From Coprobacillaceae bacterium (GTDB taxonomy: Bacteria; Bacillota_I; Bacilli_A; Erysipelotrichales; Coprobacillaceae), in assembly GCA_963675915.1 (NCBI GenBank), contig OY780959.1, positions 1,950,001 to 1,982,000 on the forward strand: a stretch of DNA of 32,000 nucleotides. The letters run 5' to 3'. The notes below the pieces were generated by a model. It was not told the origin of the DNA. It searched no databases and was given only the letters and a program-made list of their open reading frames with translations. Numbering within the stretch: the first letter of the stretch is position 1; each line of letters starts with the position of its first letter. Position numbers and translations under genes: made by a program. Below, piece after piece: positions 7,500-16,714 of the stretch.

Positions 7500-7531
7500 T
7501 AAAAAAACACGTCACCTATATGGTAACGTGT
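7500..7531 (-). terminator. Rho-independent terminator/attenuator about 17 nt upstream of the carA start codon
   Basis: Minus-strand RNA is ACACGUUACC-AUAUA-GGUGACGUGU (10 bp with one G-U) followed by U7 (7506-7500). It lies inside the carA 5' leader, not after a gene. Confidence 0.7.
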
Positions 7532-7730: not shown

Positions 7731-8282
7731 TTAAATTGAGTATATACGTGTGTCATTATTCAAGGGGAGATTTAATAACGAGGGATCCACATCCCAAGAG
7801 GCCCGGACTCCAACTTTATCAATCACTTCTTGATATGTGGCGCCTTTTTTTATTATAACTGCCTCTTTAAAAATTCCATCCACAACAAAATCAACCTGAA
7901 CAGTGCCTGGGTTGGCTGAAGTATTGAACACAATCGTTTTGCGAGTAGCGATGCTTTTTTCCTGATTGAAGAAATTAGTATAGGTTAGTACATTATTTAT
8001 GTCAATTATACCACTTTCTTTGTCGATGCTCAATATTTCCACCCGCAAATCGTCACTTCCATTTAAATTTGTTGCCATGCTTGTCAAATAGCTGTCAATC
8101 AGTTCCTGATAGCTCCAGTCCATTTCCTTGATTTTCATATCAATCATCAATTCATAAATACAGTCACTGCTCACACTCTCAAGCATTGACTTCTTAGTAG
8201 ATTCCAAACCGGTAACCATTATAATCAATGCCGCCATCACCGCCACCATAATTGCCCCAAAGACAACAACCGCCTGTTTCAT
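7731..8282 (-). CDS. Membrane-anchored hypothetical protein, last gene of the pilus-like operon
   Basis: The ORF track gives 7731..8303. ATG 8282 (MKQAVVVFGAIMVAVMAALIIMVTG...) forms an ATGA overlap with the upstream stop, so I prefer it. There is one N-terminal hydrophobic helix and then a soluble domain of about 150 aa. I recognise no family. Confidence 0.5.
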   Translation of the reverse strand: MKQAVVVFGAIMVAVMAALIIMVTGLESTKKSMLESVSSDCIYELMIDMKIKEMDWSYQELIDSYLTSMATNLNGSDDLRVEILSIDKESGIIDINNVLTYTNFFNQEKSIATRKTIVFNTSANPGTVQVDFVVDGIFKEAVIIKKGATYQEVIDKVGVRASWDVDPSLLNLPLNNDTRIYSI

Positions 8283-8599
8283 CGCGCTACCCCGCTGATA
8301 CAATAATGTTGGACAATATTCAGAACCGGAATTGAGTAGTCATATTCCAGCTGAATTTTCACCAATTCCTGATTCGCTCCGGTTATCACTTTTTCTACTG
8401 AAATATCGTAGGGAGAGTTACTGACAATACGATCAATAATATCCTGATTATGACCGCTCGATTCGATTTGCCTGATGCACTGAGTCTGATAGTCTCTTGC
8501 ATTATTGGCAAGAAGATTCATACCAATAAGATTTACTCCCAGAACACTCATAAAAACAATAAGCACTACAATCACATAAAACTCCACAGCTATTTTCAT
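8279..8599 (-). CDS. TadE-like / pseudopilin-like protein
   Basis: ORF track, 106 aa. The N-terminus MKIAVEFYVIVVLIVFMSVLG resembles the TadE-type A-x-x-E-F hydrophobic N-terminus but has no leader. AAGGAG RBS 7 nt upstream. Confidence 0.5.
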   Translation of the reverse strand: MKIAVEFYVIVVLIVFMSVLGVNLIGMNLLANNARDYQTQCIRQIESSGHNQDIIDRIVSNSPYDISVEKVITGANQELVKIQLEYDYSIPVLNIVQHYCISGVAR

Positions 8600-8602
8600 C
8601 GT

Positions 8603-9058
8603 TTACTCCTTTATAACCACTAGCGAATGCGTAATTTCGCTGGTTGAATTACGATTCAGGATAATCGTCACCTCATCAACAAAAGAACCAAAATCCCCGA
8701 GTACCACATCAATGTAGTTCAACATTCCTGAATCACTGTATTCGGAAACAAATATCAGATTATCCAAATTCTCATTCTGGTAATATATATGGTTTCCGGA
8801 AGTGGTTTGATATATCCAATCCTCAGGATTGAAATTTGATTCACCCAACAGTTCCACCGGACTGACAGTTCTGGCTGTCGTTTCAGCTGATCTTACCGAC
8901 AACTCCAAATTTTCCGGTTCATATCCAGCAACCTCAAAGTCACCTCTGCTTACCGAAATCCGGTAAAGCGGACGGACTGCCGTGATAATCATCAATAACA
9001 ACACCGCCATCAAAACAGTCAAAACTACGTTGCCGTATTCTTCAACAAGTTCTTTCAT
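8603..9058 (-). CDS. Pilin-like protein (151 aa) with an Flp-like EYG N-terminus
   Basis: ORF track. The N-terminus MKELVEEYGNVVLTVLMAVLLLMIITAV shares the motif of the three small peptides. GGGAG RBS. ATGA overlap with the upstream micro-ORF. Confidence 0.55.
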   Translation of the reverse strand: MKELVEEYGNVVLTVLMAVLLLMIITAVRPLYRISVSRGDFEVAGYEPENLELSVRSAETTARTVSPVELLGESNFNPEDWIYQTTSGNHIYYQNENLDNLIFVSEYSDSGMLNYIDVVLGDFGSFVDEVTIILNRNSTSEITHSLVVIKE

Positions 9059-9198
9059 GACAGGCTCCCATCACACATGACCTTGATCTGATCACAGATC
9101 AAATCAAACCACCTAGAATCGGTATTGGTTGTCAAAATCAGCGATCCGATAAGCACCAACACCAACACCATTCCATACTCTTCAATCAAATTTTTCAT
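9055..9198 (-). CDS. Flp-like pilin-type peptide (47 aa), not in the ORF track
   Basis: Manual translation gives MKNLIEEYGMVLVLVLIGSLILTTNTDSRWFDLICDQIKVMCDGSLS. Its ATG overlaps the upstream stop (ATGA) and its TGA overlaps the downstream ATG (ATGA). Confidence 0.5.
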   Translation of the reverse strand: MKNLIEEYGMVLVLVLIGSLILTTNTDSRWFDLICDQIKVMCDGSLS

Positions 9199-9296
9199 AA
9201 CAATCCAGACAAGATTCTTCCAAACAAACCAATTATCCCGAATAAGATACTGCCAAAAATAATGGTCTGACCATATTCTCCAATCAATTCTCTCAT
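9195..9296 (-). CDS. Flp-like pilin-type peptide (33 aa), not in the ORF track
   Basis: Manual translation gives MRELIGEYGQTIIFGSILFGIIGLFGRILSGLL. Its ATG shares 1 nt with the platform-gene stop (TGATG). A GGTGA-type SD lies about 5 nt upstream. Confidence 0.45.
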   Translation of the reverse strand: MRELIGEYGQTIIFGSILFGIIGLFGRILSGLL

Positions 9297-10768
9297 CAAA
9301 TCACCCGCATCTTTCCAATCAATAACAAAACAAATCCCGACATGTCCCCCATCATTTTGAATGTTGCCAGTAGCATCGGCAGATATTGCAACACCCCCAT
9401 GAAAGCAATCTTGTTTTCATGATATAGTCGCTCAGTTTTATCAACAAGTTTGTTATTTCTTGTCATCAATTCGTTTAAAAAACGGGAACTTTCACCATTG
9501 CCATTGATATCCAGAGCATATAAGGCCCGCATCAGAGATTTCACCTCTGACAAATTGTATTCACCTAAGAAATCATTGTATGGCAGCAATGAATTGGGAT
9601 TTTCTTGAAGTTCATTCAAGAATTTTGTGATTGCTCCCTTCATAATATGCGGTGCTTCAACAAGCGACTGTTCTATCGCCACGTGGACATTATTATTTTG
9701 AAGCAAAAGTGTAACTTGCAACAACCACTGCGGAAAAGCAAGTTCGATCTCCTTAATAATCTTTTGGCGCATCCTTTTTTTCCGGCTCCATATCTTACTC
9801 CCGACAATCAGTCCAATCATAATCAAGACCAGTGAAACAAGTAAGCGACCTGCGAGGTACGCCCCTACAGCCAGGCCAAGCGTGACCGCCAGTAAAATTA
9901 TTTCATTTTTGCCAAAAATGCTTTTGGTCCCGAAAAGTTCATAGGCCCGGTCAATTTCATTTTTTTTCATCAGTTGGATTCCATCAAAATATCTCCCGGT
10001 CAGCTTGCGCCTTACCACGACCACAAGCGCAATCAATCCCAACAAATAGGCCAAGGAAATGACTTTGACATACACCAAATCAAAAATGTTCAACTCACCT
10101 GGCAAAATGATGCCCATCACCGCAGCAATCAAAGAAGCCATCAATGCCGAAATATAGATATTCTTTTCGATTTGATGTTGTGATTTGGTTAAGAGATATA
10201 CTCTTTGGACCCACAACAGTCTTTCTTGGGCAAGTAGATCAAGTGTCTCCTGATAGGCGCCACCCCATTTTTCAATTTGGATTAAAAACCGATGAATTTT
10301 TTCAAGACGGTAACAATTGAATTCCTGTTCGATAATGGCAAATGATTTCTCATAGATATCCGGCTCTTCGTTAAATTCCAGATAGGAGATAACCTGCTCA
10401 AGGCGTTCGAGCAAGATTCCATCTTTGAAAATCTGACTGGTTTCCTGTAAGGATATCAGCAGATTGCCATGACGTTTGAAAGACATCATCAGCTGCTCTA
10501 GATAATTATTCAAGTCATCGAAGCGACGTTGTTGATAAAGATCCCGATATGTATCCCTAATCACCATCGGAACGGCAATCATCATTGCCAGCACAAGAAT
10601 GACCAAATAGATGGAGCGGAGTTGAAACAAGTAACCAATCACAAGGATTCCCACAGTCGATCCGGCCATTATCTTATAAAATCGGGAAGTTGAAAATTCA
10701 TAGCCGTATTCCGCTATTTCCCGATGCATATCTTTTAATCTCATTATCTTCATAATTATCAAGATCAA
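9296..10768 (-). CDS. Fused TadB/TadC-like (T2SS-F family) inner-membrane platform protein
   Basis: ORF track, 490 aa (TTG start; ATG alternatives at 10753 and 10744). It has an internally duplicated architecture, seen twice: 2 TM helices, a cytoplasmic helical domain of about 130 aa, then TM helix or helices. It sits directly downstream of the secretion ATPase. Confidence 0.65.
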   Translation of the reverse strand: MILIIMKIMRLKDMHREIAEYGYEFSTSRFYKIMAGSTVGILVIGYLFQLRSIYLVILVLAMMIAVPMVIRDTYRDLYQQRRFDDLNNYLEQLMMSFKRHGNLLISLQETSQIFKDGILLERLEQVISYLEFNEEPDIYEKSFAIIEQEFNCYRLEKIHRFLIQIEKWGGAYQETLDLLAQERLLWVQRVYLLTKSQHQIEKNIYISALMASLIAAVMGIILPGELNIFDLVYVKVISLAYLLGLIALVVVVRRKLTGRYFDGIQLMKKNEIDRAYELFGTKSIFGKNEIILLAVTLGLAVGAYLAGRLLVSLVLIMIGLIVGSKIWSRKKRMRQKIIKEIELAFPQWLLQVTLLLQNNNVHVAIEQSLVEAPHIMKGAITKFLNELQENPNSLLPYNDFLGEYNLSEVKSLMRALYALDINGNGESSRFLNELMTRNNKLVDKTERLYHENKIAFMGVLQYLPMLLATFKMMGDMSGFVLLLIGKMRVI

Positions 10769-11844
10769 TTACCTGAGCAATCGATTTCCTCCTTTCTGTT
10801 TCGCTTAATTTCTTCATATCTTTGATAGGGGAATTTTATTCCATTTCGCTGGAATTTTCGTTTAATTTTACATGGCAGCGGCTGTTGTTTCAGTTTCGCC
10901 TCATCCACCAGAACCACCATCTTGCACTCACCTTCCACGTAATCAAATATGCAAATTTGATCGATCCATCGTCGGATTTCATTATTGGCCAATTTGCGAT
11001 TCACAAGTATCCCGATATCAATGAAATTGAAGATGTCCTCATAAATGACATCGGCGCTGATTTCCAACTGCATCATATTCTTGATTCGCCGGGGAATTTT
11101 ATTGACATCATCGCAATGGATAGTTGTCAGGCCATTGTGACCGGTCGAGAACGCCTCCAAAAGGAATTTGACTTCCCGTGACCTGGCCTCGGAAAGAATA
11201 ATCCATTTGGGCATTTGTCTTAAGCAGGTTTTTATCGCTTTTGGATAATCGAATCTTTGATCATCGACTTTAAGCTCCACACAATCCTTCCCGGGGTTTA
11301 TTTTCGAATACCTTATTTCAAGATTATCTTCAATTGTAATAACTTTTTCGTTTCCTGGAATATATCCAGTCAACCATTTTAATAGTTCTGTTTTGCCCGA
11401 ACCGGTGATTCCGGCGACAATGACATTGCACGATGCTTTGATGCAATTCTCCAGGAAATTCAGAATCGGTGCAGTCGCATATTCGGTTTCCAGCATCATA
11501 TCCCGATCAAGCCGGGATATCGGCGGTGTTTTTCTAATCGATATCGCTACTCCCGATTTGGCTACCGAATCGTGAATTATTGAAATTCTCAAATCTGCAG
11601 TTTCAGCTTCCAGGACATTGTGTTCCTGATTGAAACTTTTCGACACACTGTTTTTTACCCTCATAATAAAAGTGTTGAGAAAGTCTTCACTCAATTCAAG
11701 ATTCACCTTATATCTTCCCCGATGAATGTGATCGACCCAGACATCCCGACCATTATAGTTAATATCGGTTATCGACTCATCCTCAATAAAAGGTAATAAT
11801 TCCCCAAAGCAATTTTGGGGAATTATCTCAAACATTGTTTCCAT
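10765..11844 (-). CDS. CpaF/TadA/VirB11-family secretion ATPase
   Basis: ORF track, 359 aa. Motifs: N-terminal ITDINYNGRDVWVD; Walker A VAGITGSGKTELL; Asp box ITIEDNLEI; Walker B-like RQMPKWIILSEARSRE; His box STGHNGLTTIH. Confidence 0.85.
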   Translation of the reverse strand: METMFEIIPQNCFGELLPFIEDESITDINYNGRDVWVDHIHRGRYKVNLELSEDFLNTFIMRVKNSVSKSFNQEHNVLEAETADLRISIIHDSVAKSGVAISIRKTPPISRLDRDMMLETEYATAPILNFLENCIKASCNVIVAGITGSGKTELLKWLTGYIPGNEKVITIEDNLEIRYSKINPGKDCVELKVDDQRFDYPKAIKTCLRQMPKWIILSEARSREVKFLLEAFSTGHNGLTTIHCDDVNKIPRRIKNMMQLEISADVIYEDIFNFIDIGILVNRKLANNEIRRWIDQICIFDYVEGECKMVVLVDEAKLKQQPLPCKIKRKFQRNGIKFPYQRYEEIKRNRKEEIDCSGN

Positions 11845-12005
11845 TATGATACCGGTTCAGCGGCAGCCTGTGTGGTCAACTCGGTAATCTGACCTTCTAT
11901 CGCATCCCCGATTTGGGTCCCAATCCCCGGCCCGATGCCCACAAATCCCAATATTACCAATGCAGTAACTACAATCAATCCATATTCTCCTAAAAAATCT
12001 TTCAT
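11844..12005 (-). CDS. Flp-family-like pilin (53 aa), candidate major subunit, not in the ORF track
   Basis: Manual translation gives MKDFLGEYGLIVVTALVILGFVGIGPGIGTQIGDAIEGQITELTTQAAAEPVS. AAGGAG RBS 6 nt upstream. The TAA stop shares 1 nt with the ATPase ATG. Confidence 0.6.
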   Translation of the reverse strand: MKDFLGEYGLIVVTALVILGFVGIGPGIGTQIGDAIEGQITELTTQAAAEPVS

Positions 12006-12017
12006 TATTTTCTCCTT

Positions 12018-14414
12018 TTATTCAATATTAAAATTCACCAGAGTCTGACCCTGGTACTTGTTTATTCCATTAATTATAATCGTTCCGATTCCCCGGCCCA
12101 CATTGTTGCGGTACGCTAAACGGTAGTCGGCATTTTCAATAAGTCGTCTTCCTTCAAAATAAATAAGCGGCTTCAAATCCAACGGCTTGCCAGTAAAATT
12201 CTGATCAGGAACCGCAGTCACTACCCCATTTTCAATGTTTCTTTTTACTATAGGTATTGTGATTATTTTGGTCCCGATAAATTCATCAGGAACTGCTACC
12301 TTAGCAATAATTTCATTATTCCAGGTGGTCGACCAAGAAATAAGCGCCCCTTTATCGAGATCGTTCCCCTGATTGTCGGTAATATCCAGCGATTGGAATA
12401 AGTCATTTTCATTGGTAATCCCGCCAAGCGAAACTCTAACATCTTCGACAGTACGAAGTTCCGGTTTTATCAGATCTTCATTAAGCCAATCAATCTCCGG
12501 ACTCATGCAATTCACCCTGAGGTAGTTTGCTTTGATTCTCTTTCTTTGATAATTGTCAATCTCATATGAAACCAACGGTTCGACTCTTTTCAGACTTCTA
12601 TCAAGAAGTGTTCTAAAGTAATAATCCTTCGAGTATCGGCCCCAGACGATGTTGCCATCGCTGTCCGATTTGAAATGGTCGCTGTCGATGAATCTTATCT
12701 GATATGTACTTTCATCTTTCAAATCGTCAATAACCCGAACGTTATAACTGGCAGTTATGTAATATTCGTGTTTAGACATATAACTAAATTCAATTGCGAC
12801 GATGCCGTCATGCTGAAAACTCCCAAAACTGTAAGAACCGGTTTTGATTTGTTCTCCAACTTCCTGACCTTCGTCGACTCCTCGTATTCCGGTACAGTCC
12901 CTGATCAAATAGTCGATATTTTCAGGGGTGATCTGGGATAATCGCAATGTACCATCATGACCGATGATTTCCGGTCGTAAAAATACCAACTGCTCCAAAT
13001 CATAAAGAATTTCAAGGTAATATCCCGAGCCGTCAAAATTGACATAATCGCCAAAATTGTCGGCAGCTATTTGCAAACCTTCTTTGAGTTCAATCTCATT
13101 TACAGTTTCAAACACGGTCCTGCCTTCTTGCTCAACCCACATTTTCAATGGTTTATAATCATTAAGGTTGAACTGGGAAAATTCGCTGGTATGGTAATCC
13201 TCCCCAACTGGAATCTGCTCTTCCTTCAAAATCAGATCCGGGATAGGAGCATAGTATATTACATCGATATTATCATATTCTAAATATTCGATAGTTACCG
13301 TATGCTCTTCACCTGGGATGACATTGGCATAATACGTCTTGGAAACAACACTATAGGGAAATGCGATTTCCCGGGGTGTGATCAAATAAGATCCAGGTGA
13401 CATATCTGGCAGGTTTACTTCTCCGCTTTCATCAGTTCTCAACATTATTGAATATCCATTTGCTCCTGAAACTGTCAGCGGGGCATTCGCTACTGGATTG
13501 TCCATATTTGAACGGGTTTTTATCCTGATTCCACCATTTTCTTGCAATTTCAGATGAATGTTGGTTTTAAGAGTTCGAGAGGTTCTAGTCAATGATCCTA
13601 TCGTCTGATAGCTGTCATTGTCAGGATTTTCAACATCCACCGTTCCTAATACTTTGGCAAGAGTAACAGTGTAATCATATAGATTCCCATTTAAGACAAA
13701 TTCCAAATCACATTCGCTGATTGCGATTCCCCGCTCAGCCTCGAAGTGGAAAAGATCACCACTCTCAAGATATGCAGTCGTTCCGGTCGTCCGGATATTT
13801 TCAGTCTCATTGACAAGAGTAATCCCATCTGGAAGATTGAAATACCCAAAGGTGTTTTCGTCGGCATGGAGTCCGACTGAATCACTGACCAGTCTAGTTT
13901 CCAGATCAAAAAAACCAATATCCGAACTTGTAAAATACAGTTCATGATAATTGGGATCCCTCAAGATGGGTAATTGATTAAAATAATCAATCAGATTGCA
14001 ATTCATGTAGCGATCCAGGGTATAGAAACTGAATCCTCTCATGTCATTAGCGTAAATATGACTTGCCATCAAATGAGTGTAGGTAATCTGGTTTTCAACC
14101 GAAAGATCGCTCATCAGATTGCCTTCGCCGCCATAACCGTAATAGAGGCACTTGATTAGATCGACATTGGCGCTTGTTGCTTGTGAGGTTACTATCCCGT
14201 CCGGTTGCCTAGTTCTCGATGCATTCAGACAAAATGCCATCTCTCCATCGATATTATAGCGTTGGGTTTGCATGCTTGTATAAAAAGGATAAGGAACCGT
14301 CCCATCTTCACCGAGCGTTGCTGCCTGGGCGAAGACTGTCGTCATTACCATGATAACAATCGGGATTATTCCGATTCCCAAACCACATGCCCATTTAAGA
14401 AATTTTGTTTGCAT
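12018..14414 (-). CDS. Large secreted adhesin-like protein (thioester-domain-like N-region, CnaB/SpaA-like fold, C-terminal Ig-like module)
   Basis: The ORF track gives 12018..14453 from TTG. ATG 14414 (MQTKFLKWACGLGIGIIPIVIMVMTTVFAQA) has a GGGGTG SD and yields a signal peptide. Internal landmarks: AFCLNASRTRQP; LYYGYGG; PLTVSGANGYSIMLRTDESGEVNLPDMSPGSYLITP; C-terminal FTGKPLDL...DYRLAYRNNVGRGIGTIIINGINKYQGQ. Confidence 0.6.
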   Translation of the reverse strand: MQTKFLKWACGLGIGIIPIVIMVMTTVFAQAATLGEDGTVPYPFYTSMQTQRYNIDGEMAFCLNASRTRQPDGIVTSQATSANVDLIKCLYYGYGGEGNLMSDLSVENQITYTHLMASHIYANDMRGFSFYTLDRYMNCNLIDYFNQLPILRDPNYHELYFTSSDIGFFDLETRLVSDSVGLHADENTFGYFNLPDGITLVNETENIRTTGTTAYLESGDLFHFEAERGIAISECDLEFVLNGNLYDYTVTLAKVLGTVDVENPDNDSYQTIGSLTRTSRTLKTNIHLKLQENGGIRIKTRSNMDNPVANAPLTVSGANGYSIMLRTDESGEVNLPDMSPGSYLITPREIAFPYSVVSKTYYANVIPGEEHTVTIEYLEYDNIDVIYYAPIPDLILKEEQIPVGEDYHTSEFSQFNLNDYKPLKMWVEQEGRTVFETVNEIELKEGLQIAADNFGDYVNFDGSGYYLEILYDLEQLVFLRPEIIGHDGTLRLSQITPENIDYLIRDCTGIRGVDEGQEVGEQIKTGSYSFGSFQHDGIVAIEFSYMSKHEYYITASYNVRVIDDLKDESTYQIRFIDSDHFKSDSDGNIVWGRYSKDYYFRTLLDRSLKRVEPLVSYEIDNYQRKRIKANYLRVNCMSPEIDWLNEDLIKPELRTVEDVRVSLGGITNENDLFQSLDITDNQGNDLDKGALISWSTTWNNEIIAKVAVPDEFIGTKIITIPIVKRNIENGVVTAVPDQNFTGKPLDLKPLIYFEGRRLIENADYRLAYRNNVGRGIGTIIINGINKYQGQTLVNFNIE

Positions 14415-15477
14415 TTTCACCCCTTCTTCTTGATTTTTTCCCAAGGCCGCCAATAGCTGTAATCATCGCTAGAAAACTTGCAATGGCAATCACCACTTTT
14501 CCAAAGTCATCTCCGGTCATAACAATCGGATTATCATCGGAATTGTTATGATCAGATGTGACAAGATCATCAACAATAACATTAGAGTCATCTCCTTTCC
14601 GGGCTTTAACACTCTTTGGCTGAGTAACTTGCTGCAAAGGGGGCTCACCGATTTTAGGTTTTGTGGCTGACAAACTAACTGAATCAAGAATAAAATCATA
14701 ATTACTGCGTCTGGCAATAAAATTCCCAATTCGATTGTTGAACTTTATTGTATAGGCAACCCCTTTTTTCAAATAAAAGGTATTGCCCGAAATAGAGCAT
14801 TTTTCCCGGGAGATCAAATCATCACCAAGAAACAGTTCAAAATCTGTTTCTTGGATCAGCTTTGGATCATCGATTTCCATCTTGAAATGGAACGTCACCG
14901 GGAGGTCATTATCGGCTTCTACAGAAAAATCAACTTTCTTATACCCATTGTCTTCCTTTTTGAGAGATGAATAAAATTCTTTAGCATAGTTACCATAAAC
15001 GAAAACAAAGCGATACTCTTTGTCGACTTCTCCTCCTTTGAAATAGTAATAACCATCACGGGTTTCAAGTCGGTCCACCAGACCTTCCTCATCATAAACA
15101 TCAATCCGACTGCCGGGATAATAATCGCAAACCAGCACAATTTCGTTGGCTTCGACAATTATCACCTTCGCGTCTGAGCTGAAATCTATTTCGATATTTT
15201 GCAACTGACGATAACCGGCGATCGTATTGATTTGATTCAATTCATAGATCCGTCTTTCGTCAATGGGAAAATCATAGTCTTGATTCTCACTTTTGAAAAT
15301 GACCGATTCCCCATCCGACGATGACAATTCCAAAATCAGTCCTTCCATCGATTGCTCCACTAACGGCTTCATGCTGTCGATAAATATTAATCGGGACCCT
15401 TCCTGAGCCTGTACCTGATTAGACATTCCAAGCCAAACAAAAAAAGATGCCAAAAGCATCTTAAGTATTTTTTTCAT
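14395..15477 (-). CDS. Secreted surface protein with a C-terminal TM anchor and basic tail
   Basis: ORF track, 360 aa. Signal peptide is MKKILKMLLASFFVWLGMSNQVQAQ. The C-terminus is ...NPIVMTGDDFGKVVIAIASFLAMITAIGGLGKKSRRRG. GGAGGT RBS. Confidence 0.6.
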   Translation of the reverse strand: MKKILKMLLASFFVWLGMSNQVQAQEGSRLIFIDSMKPLVEQSMEGLILELSSSDGESVIFKSENQDYDFPIDERRIYELNQINTIAGYRQLQNIEIDFSSDAKVIIVEANEIVLVCDYYPGSRIDVYDEEGLVDRLETRDGYYYFKGGEVDKEYRFVFVYGNYAKEFYSSLKKEDNGYKKVDFSVEADNDLPVTFHFKMEIDDPKLIQETDFELFLGDDLISREKCSISGNTFYLKKGVAYTIKFNNRIGNFIARRSNYDFILDSVSLSATKPKIGEPPLQQVTQPKSVKARKGDDSNVIVDDLVTSDHNNSDDNPIVMTGDDFGKVVIAIASFLAMITAIGGLGKKSRRRGENANKIS

Positions 15478-15488
15478 GATACCTCCAT

Positions 15489-15512
15489 AAAAAAAAGAGG
15501 CCCCTGACCTCT
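15489..15512 (-). terminator. Rho-independent terminator after ilvA
   Basis: Minus-strand RNA is AGAGG-UCAGGGG-CCUCU followed by U8 (A-run 15489-15495 on the + strand). The first arm touches the ilvA stop codon. The RBS of the next gene starts 2 nt after the U-run. Confidence 0.7.
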
Positions 15513-16714
15513 TAATTTACACGAACTATTTCATAACCCAATTCAGTGAATTTATCCATAATTGTTTTAATATGTTCTTCACCTGATGTTTCGCAAGTAA
15601 CTCGTAATTCAACTTCTGAGAAACGGGCGAAATTCTTAAACTGATTATGCTCAACTCCTATTACATTCGCATCCATTTCATTGAGAACTCTGGATACGAT
15701 TTCAAGTTGTCCGGGTTTGTCAGGTAGTTGAACCGAGAATGTGAAAATTCTTCCTCGGGAAATAAGCCCTTTATTGATCATTGATGAAATTGTCAAAACA
15801 TCAATATTCCCTCCCGAAATCAGTGATACGACTTTTTTGCCCTCGAGGTTAAGTTTCTTGGTTCCAGCCAAAGCCAGAATTCCAGAACCTTCAGCCACGA
15901 GCTTATGTCGTTCAACCAAAAGCAGGAAAGCTTCCATCAGTTCATAATCATCAACCAATACGATTTCGTCGACAAATTCCTTGATATATTCGAATGGTTT
16001 GATTCCTATTTGCTTTACAGCAGTTCCATCCGCAATGGTATTTACTTCTTGAAGCAGGCAAATTTTGTCTTCTTTGACCGCCGCTTCCGCGCTAGCAGCC
16101 CCCTCAGGTTCAACCCCGATAATTTTGATATTAGGATTTATAGCTTTGGCACAGGCAGCAATACCCGAAATCAGACCTCCCCCTCCAATCGGAACCAGAA
16201 TTGCATCCGCATCTGGAAGTTCTTCAAGAATTTCAAGAGCGATTGTCCCTTGCCCTTCGATAACATCCTCATCATCAAACGGATGAATGAATGTCAGATC
16301 ATTTTCTTCTTGCAATTCACAAGCTTTTTGGTATGCTTCATCATACACTTCCCCATAAAGCACCACGTTGGCACCAAGCGCTTTGGTCGCGTTAACTTTG
16401 ATCAAAGGCGTGTGCGCCGGCATTACAATCGTCGCTTCAACCCCTTGTTCTCTTGCAGCGAACGCCACTCCTTGAGCATGGTTTCCTGCTGAAGAAGCAA
16501 TCAAACCTTTACGTTTGGCCTCTTCAGAGAGTTTGCTTATTTTATTATAGGCACCTCTTAATTTGAATGCTCCGGTTTTTTGAAGATTCTCCGGTTTGAT
16601 ATATACTTCATTACCCGACTCCTCACTAAATGCTTCAGAGTAAATTAAAGGTGTTTGCAGTATTACTTTATCAACCCTTTTTTTTGCTTCTTGAAAGTCC
16701 TTTAATTCCAACAT
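15512..16714 (-). CDS. ilvA: Threonine ammonia-lyase (threonine dehydratase) with a C-terminal ACT-like domain
   Basis: ORF track, 400 aa. PLP-lysine context is QKTGAFKLRGA; glycine loop is IGGGGLISG; the regulatory C-domain is about 80 aa. AGGAGG RBS. Confidence 0.9.
   Translation of the reverse strand: MLELKDFQEAKKRVDKVILQTPLIYSEAFSEESGNEVYIKPENLQKTGAFKLRGAYNKISKLSEEAKRKGLIASSAGNHAQGVAFAAREQGVEATIVMPAHTPLIKVNATKALGANVVLYGEVYDEAYQKACELQEENDLTFIHPFDDEDVIEGQGTIALEILEELPDADAILVPIGGGGLISGIAACAKAINPNIKIIGVEPEGAASAEAAVKEDKICLLQEVNTIADGTAVKQIGIKPFEYIKEFVDEIVLVDDYELMEAFLLLVERHKLVAEGSGILALAGTKKLNLEGKKVVSLISGGNIDVLTISSMINKGLISRGRIFTFSVQLPDKPGQLEIVSRVLNEMDANVIGVEHNQFKNFARFSEVELRVTCETSGEEHIKTIMDKFTELGYEIVRVN

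Follow-up and report, generated by a model that had tools for sequence, protein, structure and literature searches.

We describe a chromosomal operon from a Coprobacillaceae bacterium (assembly GCA_963675915.1, contig OY780959.1, positions 1,950,001 to 1,982,000). We call this 32,000-nt stretch the window, and the coordinates below are counted from its first letter. The operon is about 8 kb long and runs on the minus strand from 15477 down to about 7507. It encodes four small proteins that share the N-terminal pattern M-x5-E-Y-G, followed by a hydrophobic helix of about 20 residues. These genes are leaderless: no upstream in-frame start codon could supply a leader peptide. Sequence comparisons support the view that the leaderless proteins, which have no linked prepilin peptidase, belong to a variant of the Tad-related type IV filaments. 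The four genes are:

11844..12005, minus strand: putative major Flp-like subunit, 53 amino acids (aa), begins MKDFLGEYG, leaderless, MKDFLGEYGLIVV; from the list of open reading frames (ORFs), the start check, the PDB profile, and hhalign.
9195..9296, minus strand: putative minor leaderless subunit, 33 aa, begins MRELIGEYG, MRELIGEYGQTII; 1-nt overlap with the stop codon of the platform gene.
9055..9198, minus strand: putative minor leaderless subunit, 47 aa, begins MKNLIEEYG, MKNLIEEYGMVLV; ATGA overlap.
8603..9058, minus strand: putative minor leaderless subunit with a C-terminal domain, 151 aa, begins MKELVEEYG, MKELVEEYGNVVL; ATGA overlap.

An initial annotation of this DNA reported these four minus-strand ORFs and their N-termini, and stated that no upstream in-frame start adds a leader. 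Inspection of the ORFs bears out both statements. The 53-aa and 151-aa genes have an in-frame stop four codons 5' of the ATG. Upstream of the 33-aa gene, 40 codons are open, and the sole start codon among them is a TTG that abuts the ATG. The 34 open codons upstream of the 47-aa gene include no start codon. A Shine-Dalgarno (SD) sequence, AAGGAGA, lies 7–8 nt ahead of the ATG of the 53-aa gene, and the 33-, 47-, and 151-aa genes are translationally coupled by overlaps of 1 nt or of 4 nt (ATGA type). On a 99%-identical contig of 2.57 Mb, the public gene calls give the same series of 53-, 33-, 47-, 151-, 106-, and 183-aa proteins. The 33- and 47-aa proteins are hardly more than one transmembrane (TM) helix. 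A single-sequence model of the 151-aa protein (pLDDT 50) has a confident helix at residues 2–27, followed by beta strands of low confidence.

Scanning genomes with a profile of the operon's ATPase, and keeping one genome per species, yielded 80 related loci, or 81 with the window. (Relatives of the ATPase number more than 1000. A search of genome contigs by the window's ATPase sequence alone gave no match, so the alignment-based scan was required.) The 80 loci are from Lachnospiraceae (Lactonifactor, Robinsoniella, Faecalicatena, Muricomes, Blautia, Roseburia, Agathobacter, Lachnobacterium, and Eubacterium species), Erysipelotrichaceae, and Coprobacillaceae. Outside the ATPase and platform genes, and disregarding start codons, we scanned the 81 loci for E-[YF]-G with a hydrophobic tail behind it. 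An ATG, GTG, or TTG is found exactly six codons before the Glu in 206 of 207 such motifs; the chance expectation of a start codon at any given codon is about 5%. The 206 motifs are spread over 68 of the 81 loci, mostly with three or four per locus. GGAG or GAGG is present at −18 to −4 for 155 of the 206, as compared to 11% of random positions. The leaderless start is a trait of the family, far beyond chance.

The N-terminal consensus is M-K-E-F-[IL]-E-E-Y-G-x-[IV]-[IVL]. Position 2 is most often Lys (110 sequences), followed by Q, R, T, D, S, and E. The genes for major subunits lie 150–400 nt upstream of the ATPase, each with a clear GGAGG, and encode products of 50–64 aa. Most related loci have an equivalent of the 33-aa gene at the same position, and the 151-aa class is kept at 130–170 aa in most loci. 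In loci of the Lactonifactor and Robinsoniella types, a large minor subunit of about 364–374 aa has a BspA-type leucine-rich repeat (LRR) behind the leaderless module (L003:12682-13776; L007:12741-13862), which is consistent with a tip adhesin. We also noticed that a Blautia metagenome-assembled genome (MAG) has three tandem, almost identical paralogues of the major subunit upstream of its ATPase (L023:9050-9860).

Could the true starts lie further upstream, so that a normal leader was overlooked? Public gene calls give some reason to ask: of the best 120 public database members, 109 start with M-x5-E-Y-G, and the other 11 are annotated as longer at the N-terminus. But each of these 11 contains an internal start codon (ATG, GTG, or TTG) exactly at −6, and none has a conserved Gly. 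Furthermore, among the 206 motifs from the 81 loci, 103 are preceded by an in-frame stop no more than 10 codons away, 130 lack an alternative upstream start, and SD sites precede the −6 start. An error of this kind is extremely improbable. The initial annotation had named beforehand a finding that would count against a leaderless start, namely homologues with longer leaders and a conserved Gly. No such homologues turned up in the 80 loci or among the 120 database members, given the start at −6 in 206 of 207 motifs and the lack of a conserved Gly in the 11 longer gene calls. The database members are all unnamed or "hypothetical." An exhaustive phmmer search with the 53-aa protein gave just 7 matches in 1.84 billion representative sequences, of which 5 are leaderless relatives and 2 are repetitive membrane proteins; this search is too insensitive to reach canonical Flp.

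The four window proteins have no match at or near the thresholds of Pfam or NCBIfam. To look for more distant relatives, we built a profile from 23 orthologues of the major subunit and compared it to 177,635 PDB sequences. The top two matches were the Tad pilin PilA of Caulobacter (8u1k, E = 0.025) and an Flp pilin (8u2b, E = 0.16). The alignments place E7-Y8-G9 on E5-Y6-G7 of the mature pilins. Flp_Fap (PF04964) matches the window's 53-aa protein with 10.4 bits (E = 0.59), short of the gathering threshold of 32.2 bits, and residue 7 aligns to model position 12. Sub-threshold matches to Flp_Fap were found for 8 of the 23 orthologues (best E = 0.019). Flp1_like (PF16982) matched 6 of the 23, also below threshold (29 bits at best, with a cutoff of 33.5 bits), and DUF4244 gave one sub-threshold match; the window's 53-aa protein has no match to Flp1_like.

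A third comparison used six annotated proteobacterial Flp prepilins, which were fetched with an approximate full-length Flp-like probe (used for fetching only). Here hhalign reported a probability of 83% (E = 9e-6) and placed E7 on E19, which is the +5 residue after the G14 cleavage site. E7-Y8-G9 thus aligns with E5-Y6-G7 of 8u1k and 8u2b and with E19-Y20-G21 of the prepilins, over 33–40 columns. (Searching plasmids by tblastn with a mature PilA fragment gave no match.) The major subunit also has the architecture of Flp, with E-Y-G at the head of a hydrophobic helix of about 20 residues, a short amphipathic C-terminal helix, and a length of about 45–65 aa.

By remote homology, this family of subunits is Flp-like, and by the threshold of PF04964 it falls outside that Pfam family. 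The initial annotation had simply called these proteins Flp pilins. The kinship holds up in the PDB profile, the sub-threshold Pfam matches, and hhalign, but Flp_Fap's threshold is not reached, so we say "Flp-like" instead. Likewise, the alignment to PF04964 that it suggested gives the same register, although the matches stay below the gathering threshold. Its register, with E-Y-G on the E-Y-G of mature Flp and almost no leader, agrees with all three comparisons. Because the three agree, Met1 is equivalent to the −2 residue of a prepilin, and residue 2 falls in the slot of the −1 Gly. The class III signal peptide, G/XXXXEY, is not present: the product begins six residues before the Glu, and the would-be −1 residue (position 2) is Gly or Ala in just 2 of 195 sequences.

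Alternatively, the consensus M-K-E-F-I-E-E-Y-G could itself be a class III leader that is cut after Gly9 by an unlinked peptidase of the PilD, ComC, or TadV type. The mature protein would then start at residue 10 and have no acidic residue at +5. The initial annotation missed that, formally, Gly9 could be the −1 residue of a nine-residue leader. Gly9 is invariant in our strict set (by construction), and in a looser set this position is 88% Gly and 94% Gly, Ala, or Ser. Also, residues 1–10 are polar and residues 11–29 are hydrophobic, with positive hydropathy from residue 11 onwards, which matches the definition of a hydrophilic leader that ends in Gly or Ala and is followed by 20–25 hydrophobic residues (PMC10191384). 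And MSH loci likewise lack their own peptidase and borrow one (Denise et al. 2019; PMC6668835).

However, all three homology comparisons put E-Y-G on E5-Y6-G7 of mature Flp, where the Gly is not cleaved, and cleavage after Gly9 would discard the E-Y that aligns with a functional motif of Flp. A fixed leader length of nine would be unexpected, as would a conserved E-Y at −3 and −2; real leaders vary in length, unlike the constant N-terminus here. Furthermore, across the 195 sequences, the would-be +1 residue (residue 10) is Lys, Arg, or Glu in 79 and the would-be +5 residue (residue 14) is never Asp or Glu. The leader would have a negative net charge (usually −1 to −2 for the N-terminal segment). 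Finally, a second class of proteins that is encoded alongside these subunits has no equivalent Gly. We consider cleavage after Gly9 to be unlikely.

8279..8599, minus strand: 106-aa protein of the second leaderless class, M-K-x-x-[IV]-E6 and a TM helix, ending in ...G-Y-A-R.

This second class is found in 31 loci (for instance, L007:14052-14384). Its members share M-K-x-x-[IV]-E6, a TM helix, a core of NA[RQ]NYHA...E[AN]S[DN]F, and a C-terminal ...G-Y-A-R, and none has a Gly that could be used as a cleavage site. The N-terminus (M-K-x-x-V-E and a TM helix) resembles that of TadE, but the family has no match in Pfam, including TadE, or in the PDB. The 106-aa protein is probably a fifth leaderless member of the set, which the initial annotation overlooked, and it is possibly a pseudopilin.

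Between the genes for the major and the minor subunits lie two genes for the putative machinery:

10765..11844, minus strand: secretion-type hexameric ATPase, 359 aa, of the CpaF/TadA-FlaI-VirB11 group; T2SSE, 87 bits.
9296..10768, minus strand: polytopic membrane protein, 477–490 aa depending on the start, probable platform with two divergent GspF/T2SSF-like domains.

The ATPase matches T2SSE (PF00437) well above the cutoff of 24.9 bits. In the PDB, it is most similar to afGspE (2oap, E = 1e-25), CpaF (6e-20), and FlaI (1e-17), and it also matches VirB11; it scores far below the cutoffs of the specific NCBIfam models (VirB11, the TadA family, and FlaI). Given the score with the VirB11 model and a weak match to TraM, we also considered a type IV secretion system (VirB2/VirB11). 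We rejected this because the TraM match is via a signal-peptide region, the locus has no further genes of such a system, and the ATPase's partner looks GspF-like.

A candidate platform protein is found together with the ATPase in all 80 related loci. It is a single protein of 430–540 aa in the window and in 79 of the 80. The window's platform protein has no Pfam match of its own, and its profile has no sequence match in the PDB. T2SSF touches 3 of 25 homologues (E = 6.3e-4 at best), and hhalign finds a weak similarity between the N-terminal and C-terminal halves (E = 0.043). An AlphaFold model from a four-sequence alignment has a pLDDT of 57, and the only compact matches that Foldseek found for this low-confidence model are GspF-fold domains (EpsF, OutF, PilC, and SpoIIIAB; probability 0.4–0.8, E > 1). 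We read this membrane protein as likely a divergent, unsplit platform with two GspF/T2SSF-like domains. We also noticed a motif in its cytoplasmic N-terminus (around 10700-10730 in the window, minus strand) that recalls the E-Y-G of the subunits: about half of the family has [ERK]-Y-G-[YF]-x-[FV]-S, and the window has AEYGYEFS.

The platform is encoded by two genes only in L078, from the Erysipelotrichaceae MAG SIG230 (8810-12990). L078's ATPase is 44% identical to the window's. Directly upstream of it is RcpC/CpaB, which passes the Pfam threshold, and two overlapping genes, for 260 and 234 aa, encode the split platform. Downstream of the platform genes are a leaderless 54-aa subunit (MKIFFEEYG) and a 107-aa protein that begins M-K-I-G-F-E. 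Because it has a leaderless pilin along with RcpC/CpaB and a divided platform, L078 ties the family to the Tad lineage, and it looks like a bridge to canonical Tad. The proteins of the window's operon have no match to RcpC, SAF, or ParA/CbiA-type families, and RcpC is found in L078 alone.

The initial annotation also noted that there is no prepilin peptidase gene at the locus, and our wider scans agree. Peptidase_A24 matches no window ORF of at least 90 aa and none of the 71 polytopic ORFs that lie no more than 10 kb from the ATPase in the 80 loci, and a screen of the loci for the GxGD peptidase motif turned up nothing convincing. Another kind of membrane protease does occur: genes for Rce1-like (CPBP) intramembrane proteases are found in 9 of the 80 loci. 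In three of these, the gene is directly upstream of the major pilin gene and on the same strand (L013:8312-9244, L025:8618-9487, and L073:8198-9130), and in L015, L017, and L059 it is about 7 kb upstream. We rejected the CPBP protease as a core replacement for the peptidase because it is present in 9 of 80 loci only.

These genes also bear on the possibility that an enzyme outside the A24 family, either an aminopeptidase or a CPBP/Rce1-like membrane protease, trims Met or Met-Lys and so restores the Glu5 register. Removing two residues would give exactly x4-E5-Y6-G7, and removing Met from the 106-aa class would give x4-E5. But the residue at position 2 is in most cases K, R, Q, D, or E, and methionine aminopeptidases do not remove Met before these residues. 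Residue 2 is also too variable for a specific endopeptidase site, and the CPBP gene is missing from the window and from 71 of the 80 loci. Trimming of this kind seems quite improbable.

Instead, we propose that the subunits are born mature, as Flp-like pilins of a minimal, Tad-related type IV filament of monoderm bacteria that is assembled without a prepilin peptidase. We favor this reading, though by no means strongly. The 53-aa major subunit, the minor subunits of 33, 47, and 151 aa, and probably also the 106-aa protein would be translated directly in a mature-like form. The product, M-[K/x]-x-Φ-Φ-x-E-Y-G (where Φ is hydrophobic), would start two residues before the canonical TadV cut, with a would-be −1 residue that is not Gly or Ala. 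The subunits would insert into the membrane as N-in/C-out signal-anchor proteins, and the short amphipathic N-terminal nonapeptide would remain at the cytoplasmic face, with Glu7 assuming the charge-neutralizing and docking role of Glu5. The CpaF/FlaI-type ATPase, acting via the double GspF-like platform, would extract the subunits and polymerize them into a thin Flp-like filament, and no step by a prepilin peptidase would be involved. Adhesion would come from the larger minor subunits and perhaps from the adjacent secreted adhesins (thioester-domain, beta-helix, or LRR proteins). A bolder version is that a lineage that is widespread in gut Lachnospiraceae and Erysipelotrichales has shed the prepilin peptidase entirely, so that the pilins keep Met1 and the ATPase and platform suffice. 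We see the chances of that as evenly balanced.

In favor of our proposal are the invariant length of the N-terminus, the lack of a small residue at −1, the lack of a linked peptidase, and the 106-aa class with no usable Gly. It also fits with what known peptidases require, which is a leader of at least 3–5 residues that ends in Gly or Ala (PMC4307647, PMC10191384). Even the permissive PibD requires 3–4 leader residues, the last of them small, and FlaK requires at least 5 (PMC4307647).

On the other hand, several observations are awkward for the idea of subunits that are born mature. Gly9 stands directly before the hydrophobic stretch, where it formally fits a nine-residue class III leader. Glu7 lies within the polar N-terminal segment, whereas Glu5 of Flp lies inside the hydrophobic helix. 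The net charge of the N-terminus, at −1 to −2, gives no obvious support for N-in topology. The matches to pilin families are all below the curated thresholds, and hhalign's probability is only 83%. The platform is identified by weak similarities (T2SSF with E = 6e-4 at best, a pLDDT of 57, and Foldseek matches with E > 1). Peptidases of the PilD/ComC type may be encoded elsewhere in the carrier genomes. And expression, the proteins themselves, and the formation of a filament are predictions from sequence.

The rest of the operon and its boundaries are:

15512-16714: gene for a PALP enzyme, the upstream housekeeping neighbor.
15495..15513, minus strand: terminator-like hairpin that closes the PALP-enzyme gene (8-bp stem and T-run), the upstream boundary of the operon.
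14395..15477, minus strand: first gene, a 360-aa surface protein with an N-terminal signal peptide, a C-terminal hydrophobic segment, and a K/R-rich tail.
12018..14453, minus strand: 811-aa secreted thioester-domain adhesin (TED_2 and a SpaA/prealbumin-like domain); TED_2, E = 1e-16.
11795..11827, minus strand: 14-bp RNA hairpin that begins 17 nt inside the ATPase ORF, just past the pilin's stop codon; −21.1 kcal/mol, z = −3.6.
7731..8282, minus strand: last gene, a 183-aa protein with an N-terminal TM helix (MKQAVVVFG...); no family match.
7507..7531, minus strand: hairpin like an intrinsic terminator (10-bp stem and T-run), at the end of the operon, ahead of carA.

The two terminator-like hairpins enclose a single minus-strand unit between the PALP enzyme (upstream) and carAB (downstream). 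Homologues of the 183-aa protein were detectable in 6 loci, and the 360-aa protein has no family match. The 811-aa protein has a Sec signal peptide and no recognizable C-terminal anchor (neither LPXTG nor a membrane segment), and it is encoded directly upstream of the major pilin. Its 99%-identical homologue matches both TED_2 and TEDa_beta, and homologues that are 32–33% identical are in the same position in L001 and L002. The 811-aa and 360-aa proteins may be cargo or partners of the filament.

The hairpin at the start of the ATPase gene is also found in the two closest loci, L001 and L002 (at about 10018-10050 in each), with compensatory changes in the stems (CCCCAAA/UUUGGGG versus CCCCGA/UCGGGG). 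In Robinsoniella (L007), a hairpin lies between the genes at the corresponding position. It is possible that the hairpin in the window is an attenuator or an mRNA stabilizer that sets the ratio of pilin to machinery. L002 also contains decayed ORFs related to the insertion sequences IS605 and IS607, between the ATPase and the platform (11000-12270) and before the 106-aa gene (14680-15970). These are TnpB zinc-ribbon fragments and the N-terminus of a serine recombinase, and both insertions create the same read-through N-terminus, MTFYKFSVT.

In most loci, anchorless large secreted proteins flank the machinery: the TED protein in the window, beta-helix proteins in about 12 loci, and a 1226-aa protein in L003. 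So we also considered that the small proteins might not form an extended pilus. They could instead be a short pseudopilus or the membrane parts of a secretion device for the adhesins, or unrelated hydrophobic peptides akin to leaderless bacteriocins or holins. The 33- and 47-aa proteins have little beyond a single TM helix, and there are weak, chance-level matches to holin and bacteriocin families. However, the N-terminal module is fused to C-terminal domains of 100–370 aa (LRR or Ig/PKD-like) in paralogues, which is a modular pilin design. Also, the best and most recurrent similarity is to Flp/Tad pilins, and the ATPase belongs to the T2SSE type rather than to the ABC exporters. A pseudopilus would itself be a type IV filament with leaderless subunits. 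We doubt that the small proteins are anything but subunits of an extended pilus.

A sub-clade of the related loci has another arrangement. In L037, L038, L044, L047, L055, L061, L063, L067, L068, and L070, the gene directly before the ATPase encodes a secreted beta-helix protein of 500–720 aa and not the major subunit. These proteins have repeats of the GGGAV type and a weak match to a pectate-lyase-like adhesive domain. The small E-Y-G genes in this sub-clade are less numerous or have diverged further (L067 and L070, for example, have ...RQYSEW).

Reviews describe type IV filaments as having a core of pilin, prepilin peptidase, ATPase, and platform; the peptidase is conserved, and the leader "invariably ends with Gly or Ala" (PMC10191384). 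If the bolder version of our proposal is correct, then one of four components that were held to be universal in this superfamily has been removed, which would leave the smallest known filament machine, with a fixed N-terminal nonapeptide in place of a processed N-terminus. A widespread natural family of leaderless Flp-like subunits would show that processing is not intrinsic to assembly, and the cultured carriers offer a direct route to asking what purpose the leader and its removal serve. Such carriers include Lactonifactor longoviformis DSM 17459, Robinsoniella peoriensis CCUG 48729, Muricomes intestini DSM 29489, Lachnobacterium bovis DSM 14045, Eubacterium oxidoreducens DSM 3217, and Faecalicatena contorta. 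The Lachnospiraceae and Erysipelotrichaceae that carry the operons are abundant commensals of the gut, and the operons are paired with thioester, beta-helix, or LRR adhesins, so the system may be an overlooked colonization factor.

Full-text literature searches for the motif strings and for "leaderless pilin" found no paper. The Com pilus of monoderms also has a compact operon, in which a major pilin and several minor ones are accompanied by a single ATPase and a single platform (PMC10191384). But its pilin leader ends in Gly or Ala, ComC is required, and its ATPase and pilins are from other families. The archaeal type IV pilins and archaellins (which are processed by PibD, FlaK, or EppA) share other features with the window's family: its ATPase resembles afGspE and FlaI about as closely as it does CpaF, the archaeal platform is unsplit, and the archaeal system tolerates very short leaders. 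However, the window's family has at most two residues before the register and no small residue at −1.

Closer to home, the Flp1_like pilins and canonical tad loci of Clostridia and Erysipelotrichales are from the same phylum and have small helical subunits, with sub-threshold similarity in the hydrophobic core. These canonical loci begin with tadV, and their pilin leaders end in Gly (PMC12786226, PMC3244431); for instance, tadV is the first gene of the tad operon found in Bulleidia extructa, which belongs to the Erysipelotrichales (PMC12786226). The window's operon has neither tadV nor a leader that ends in Gly. The closest prior hint is from Imam et al. 2011, who used PilFind and reported Gram-positive tad-like loci without any prepilin signal-peptide motif in C. 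kluyveri, C. cellulolyticum, C. bolteae, C. sp. L2-50, and D. hafniense (PMC3244431). Those loci were reported to contain tadV, tadZ, and rcpC, and their subunits were left unidentified (PMC3244431). Like the window's family, they have a tad-like machinery; theirs is in Clostridia, and motif tools found no pilin for it. Comparing by description, they differ in having tadV, tadZ, and rcpC, and leaderless E-Y-G subunits were not described. Leaderless subunits would explain why tools like PilFind find no pilin in some Gram-positive tad-like loci (PMC3244431).

The Tad/Flp (type IVc) systems of Aggregatibacter, Caulobacter, and Pseudomonas have a separate TadB and TadC with one T2SSF domain each, while the platform of the window's family is fused in 79 of 80 loci. 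The family also differs from them in lacking a leader, a Gly at −1, and a tadV in the locus. The window's operon has no TadZ and, in its monoderm host, no secretin. Furthermore, the family's ATPase is short (about 350 aa), its pilins score below the Flp_Fap threshold, and its Glu is at position 7 in a polar segment. Nevertheless, much is shared: a helix-only major subunit of about 50–60 aa with E-Y-G heading the hydrophobic helix, several minor subunits with the same N-terminal module, an ATPase encoded beside the pilin with similarity to CpaF/TadA, and a probable GspF-type platform. One member, L078, has RcpC/CpaB and a split platform in common with Tad as well.

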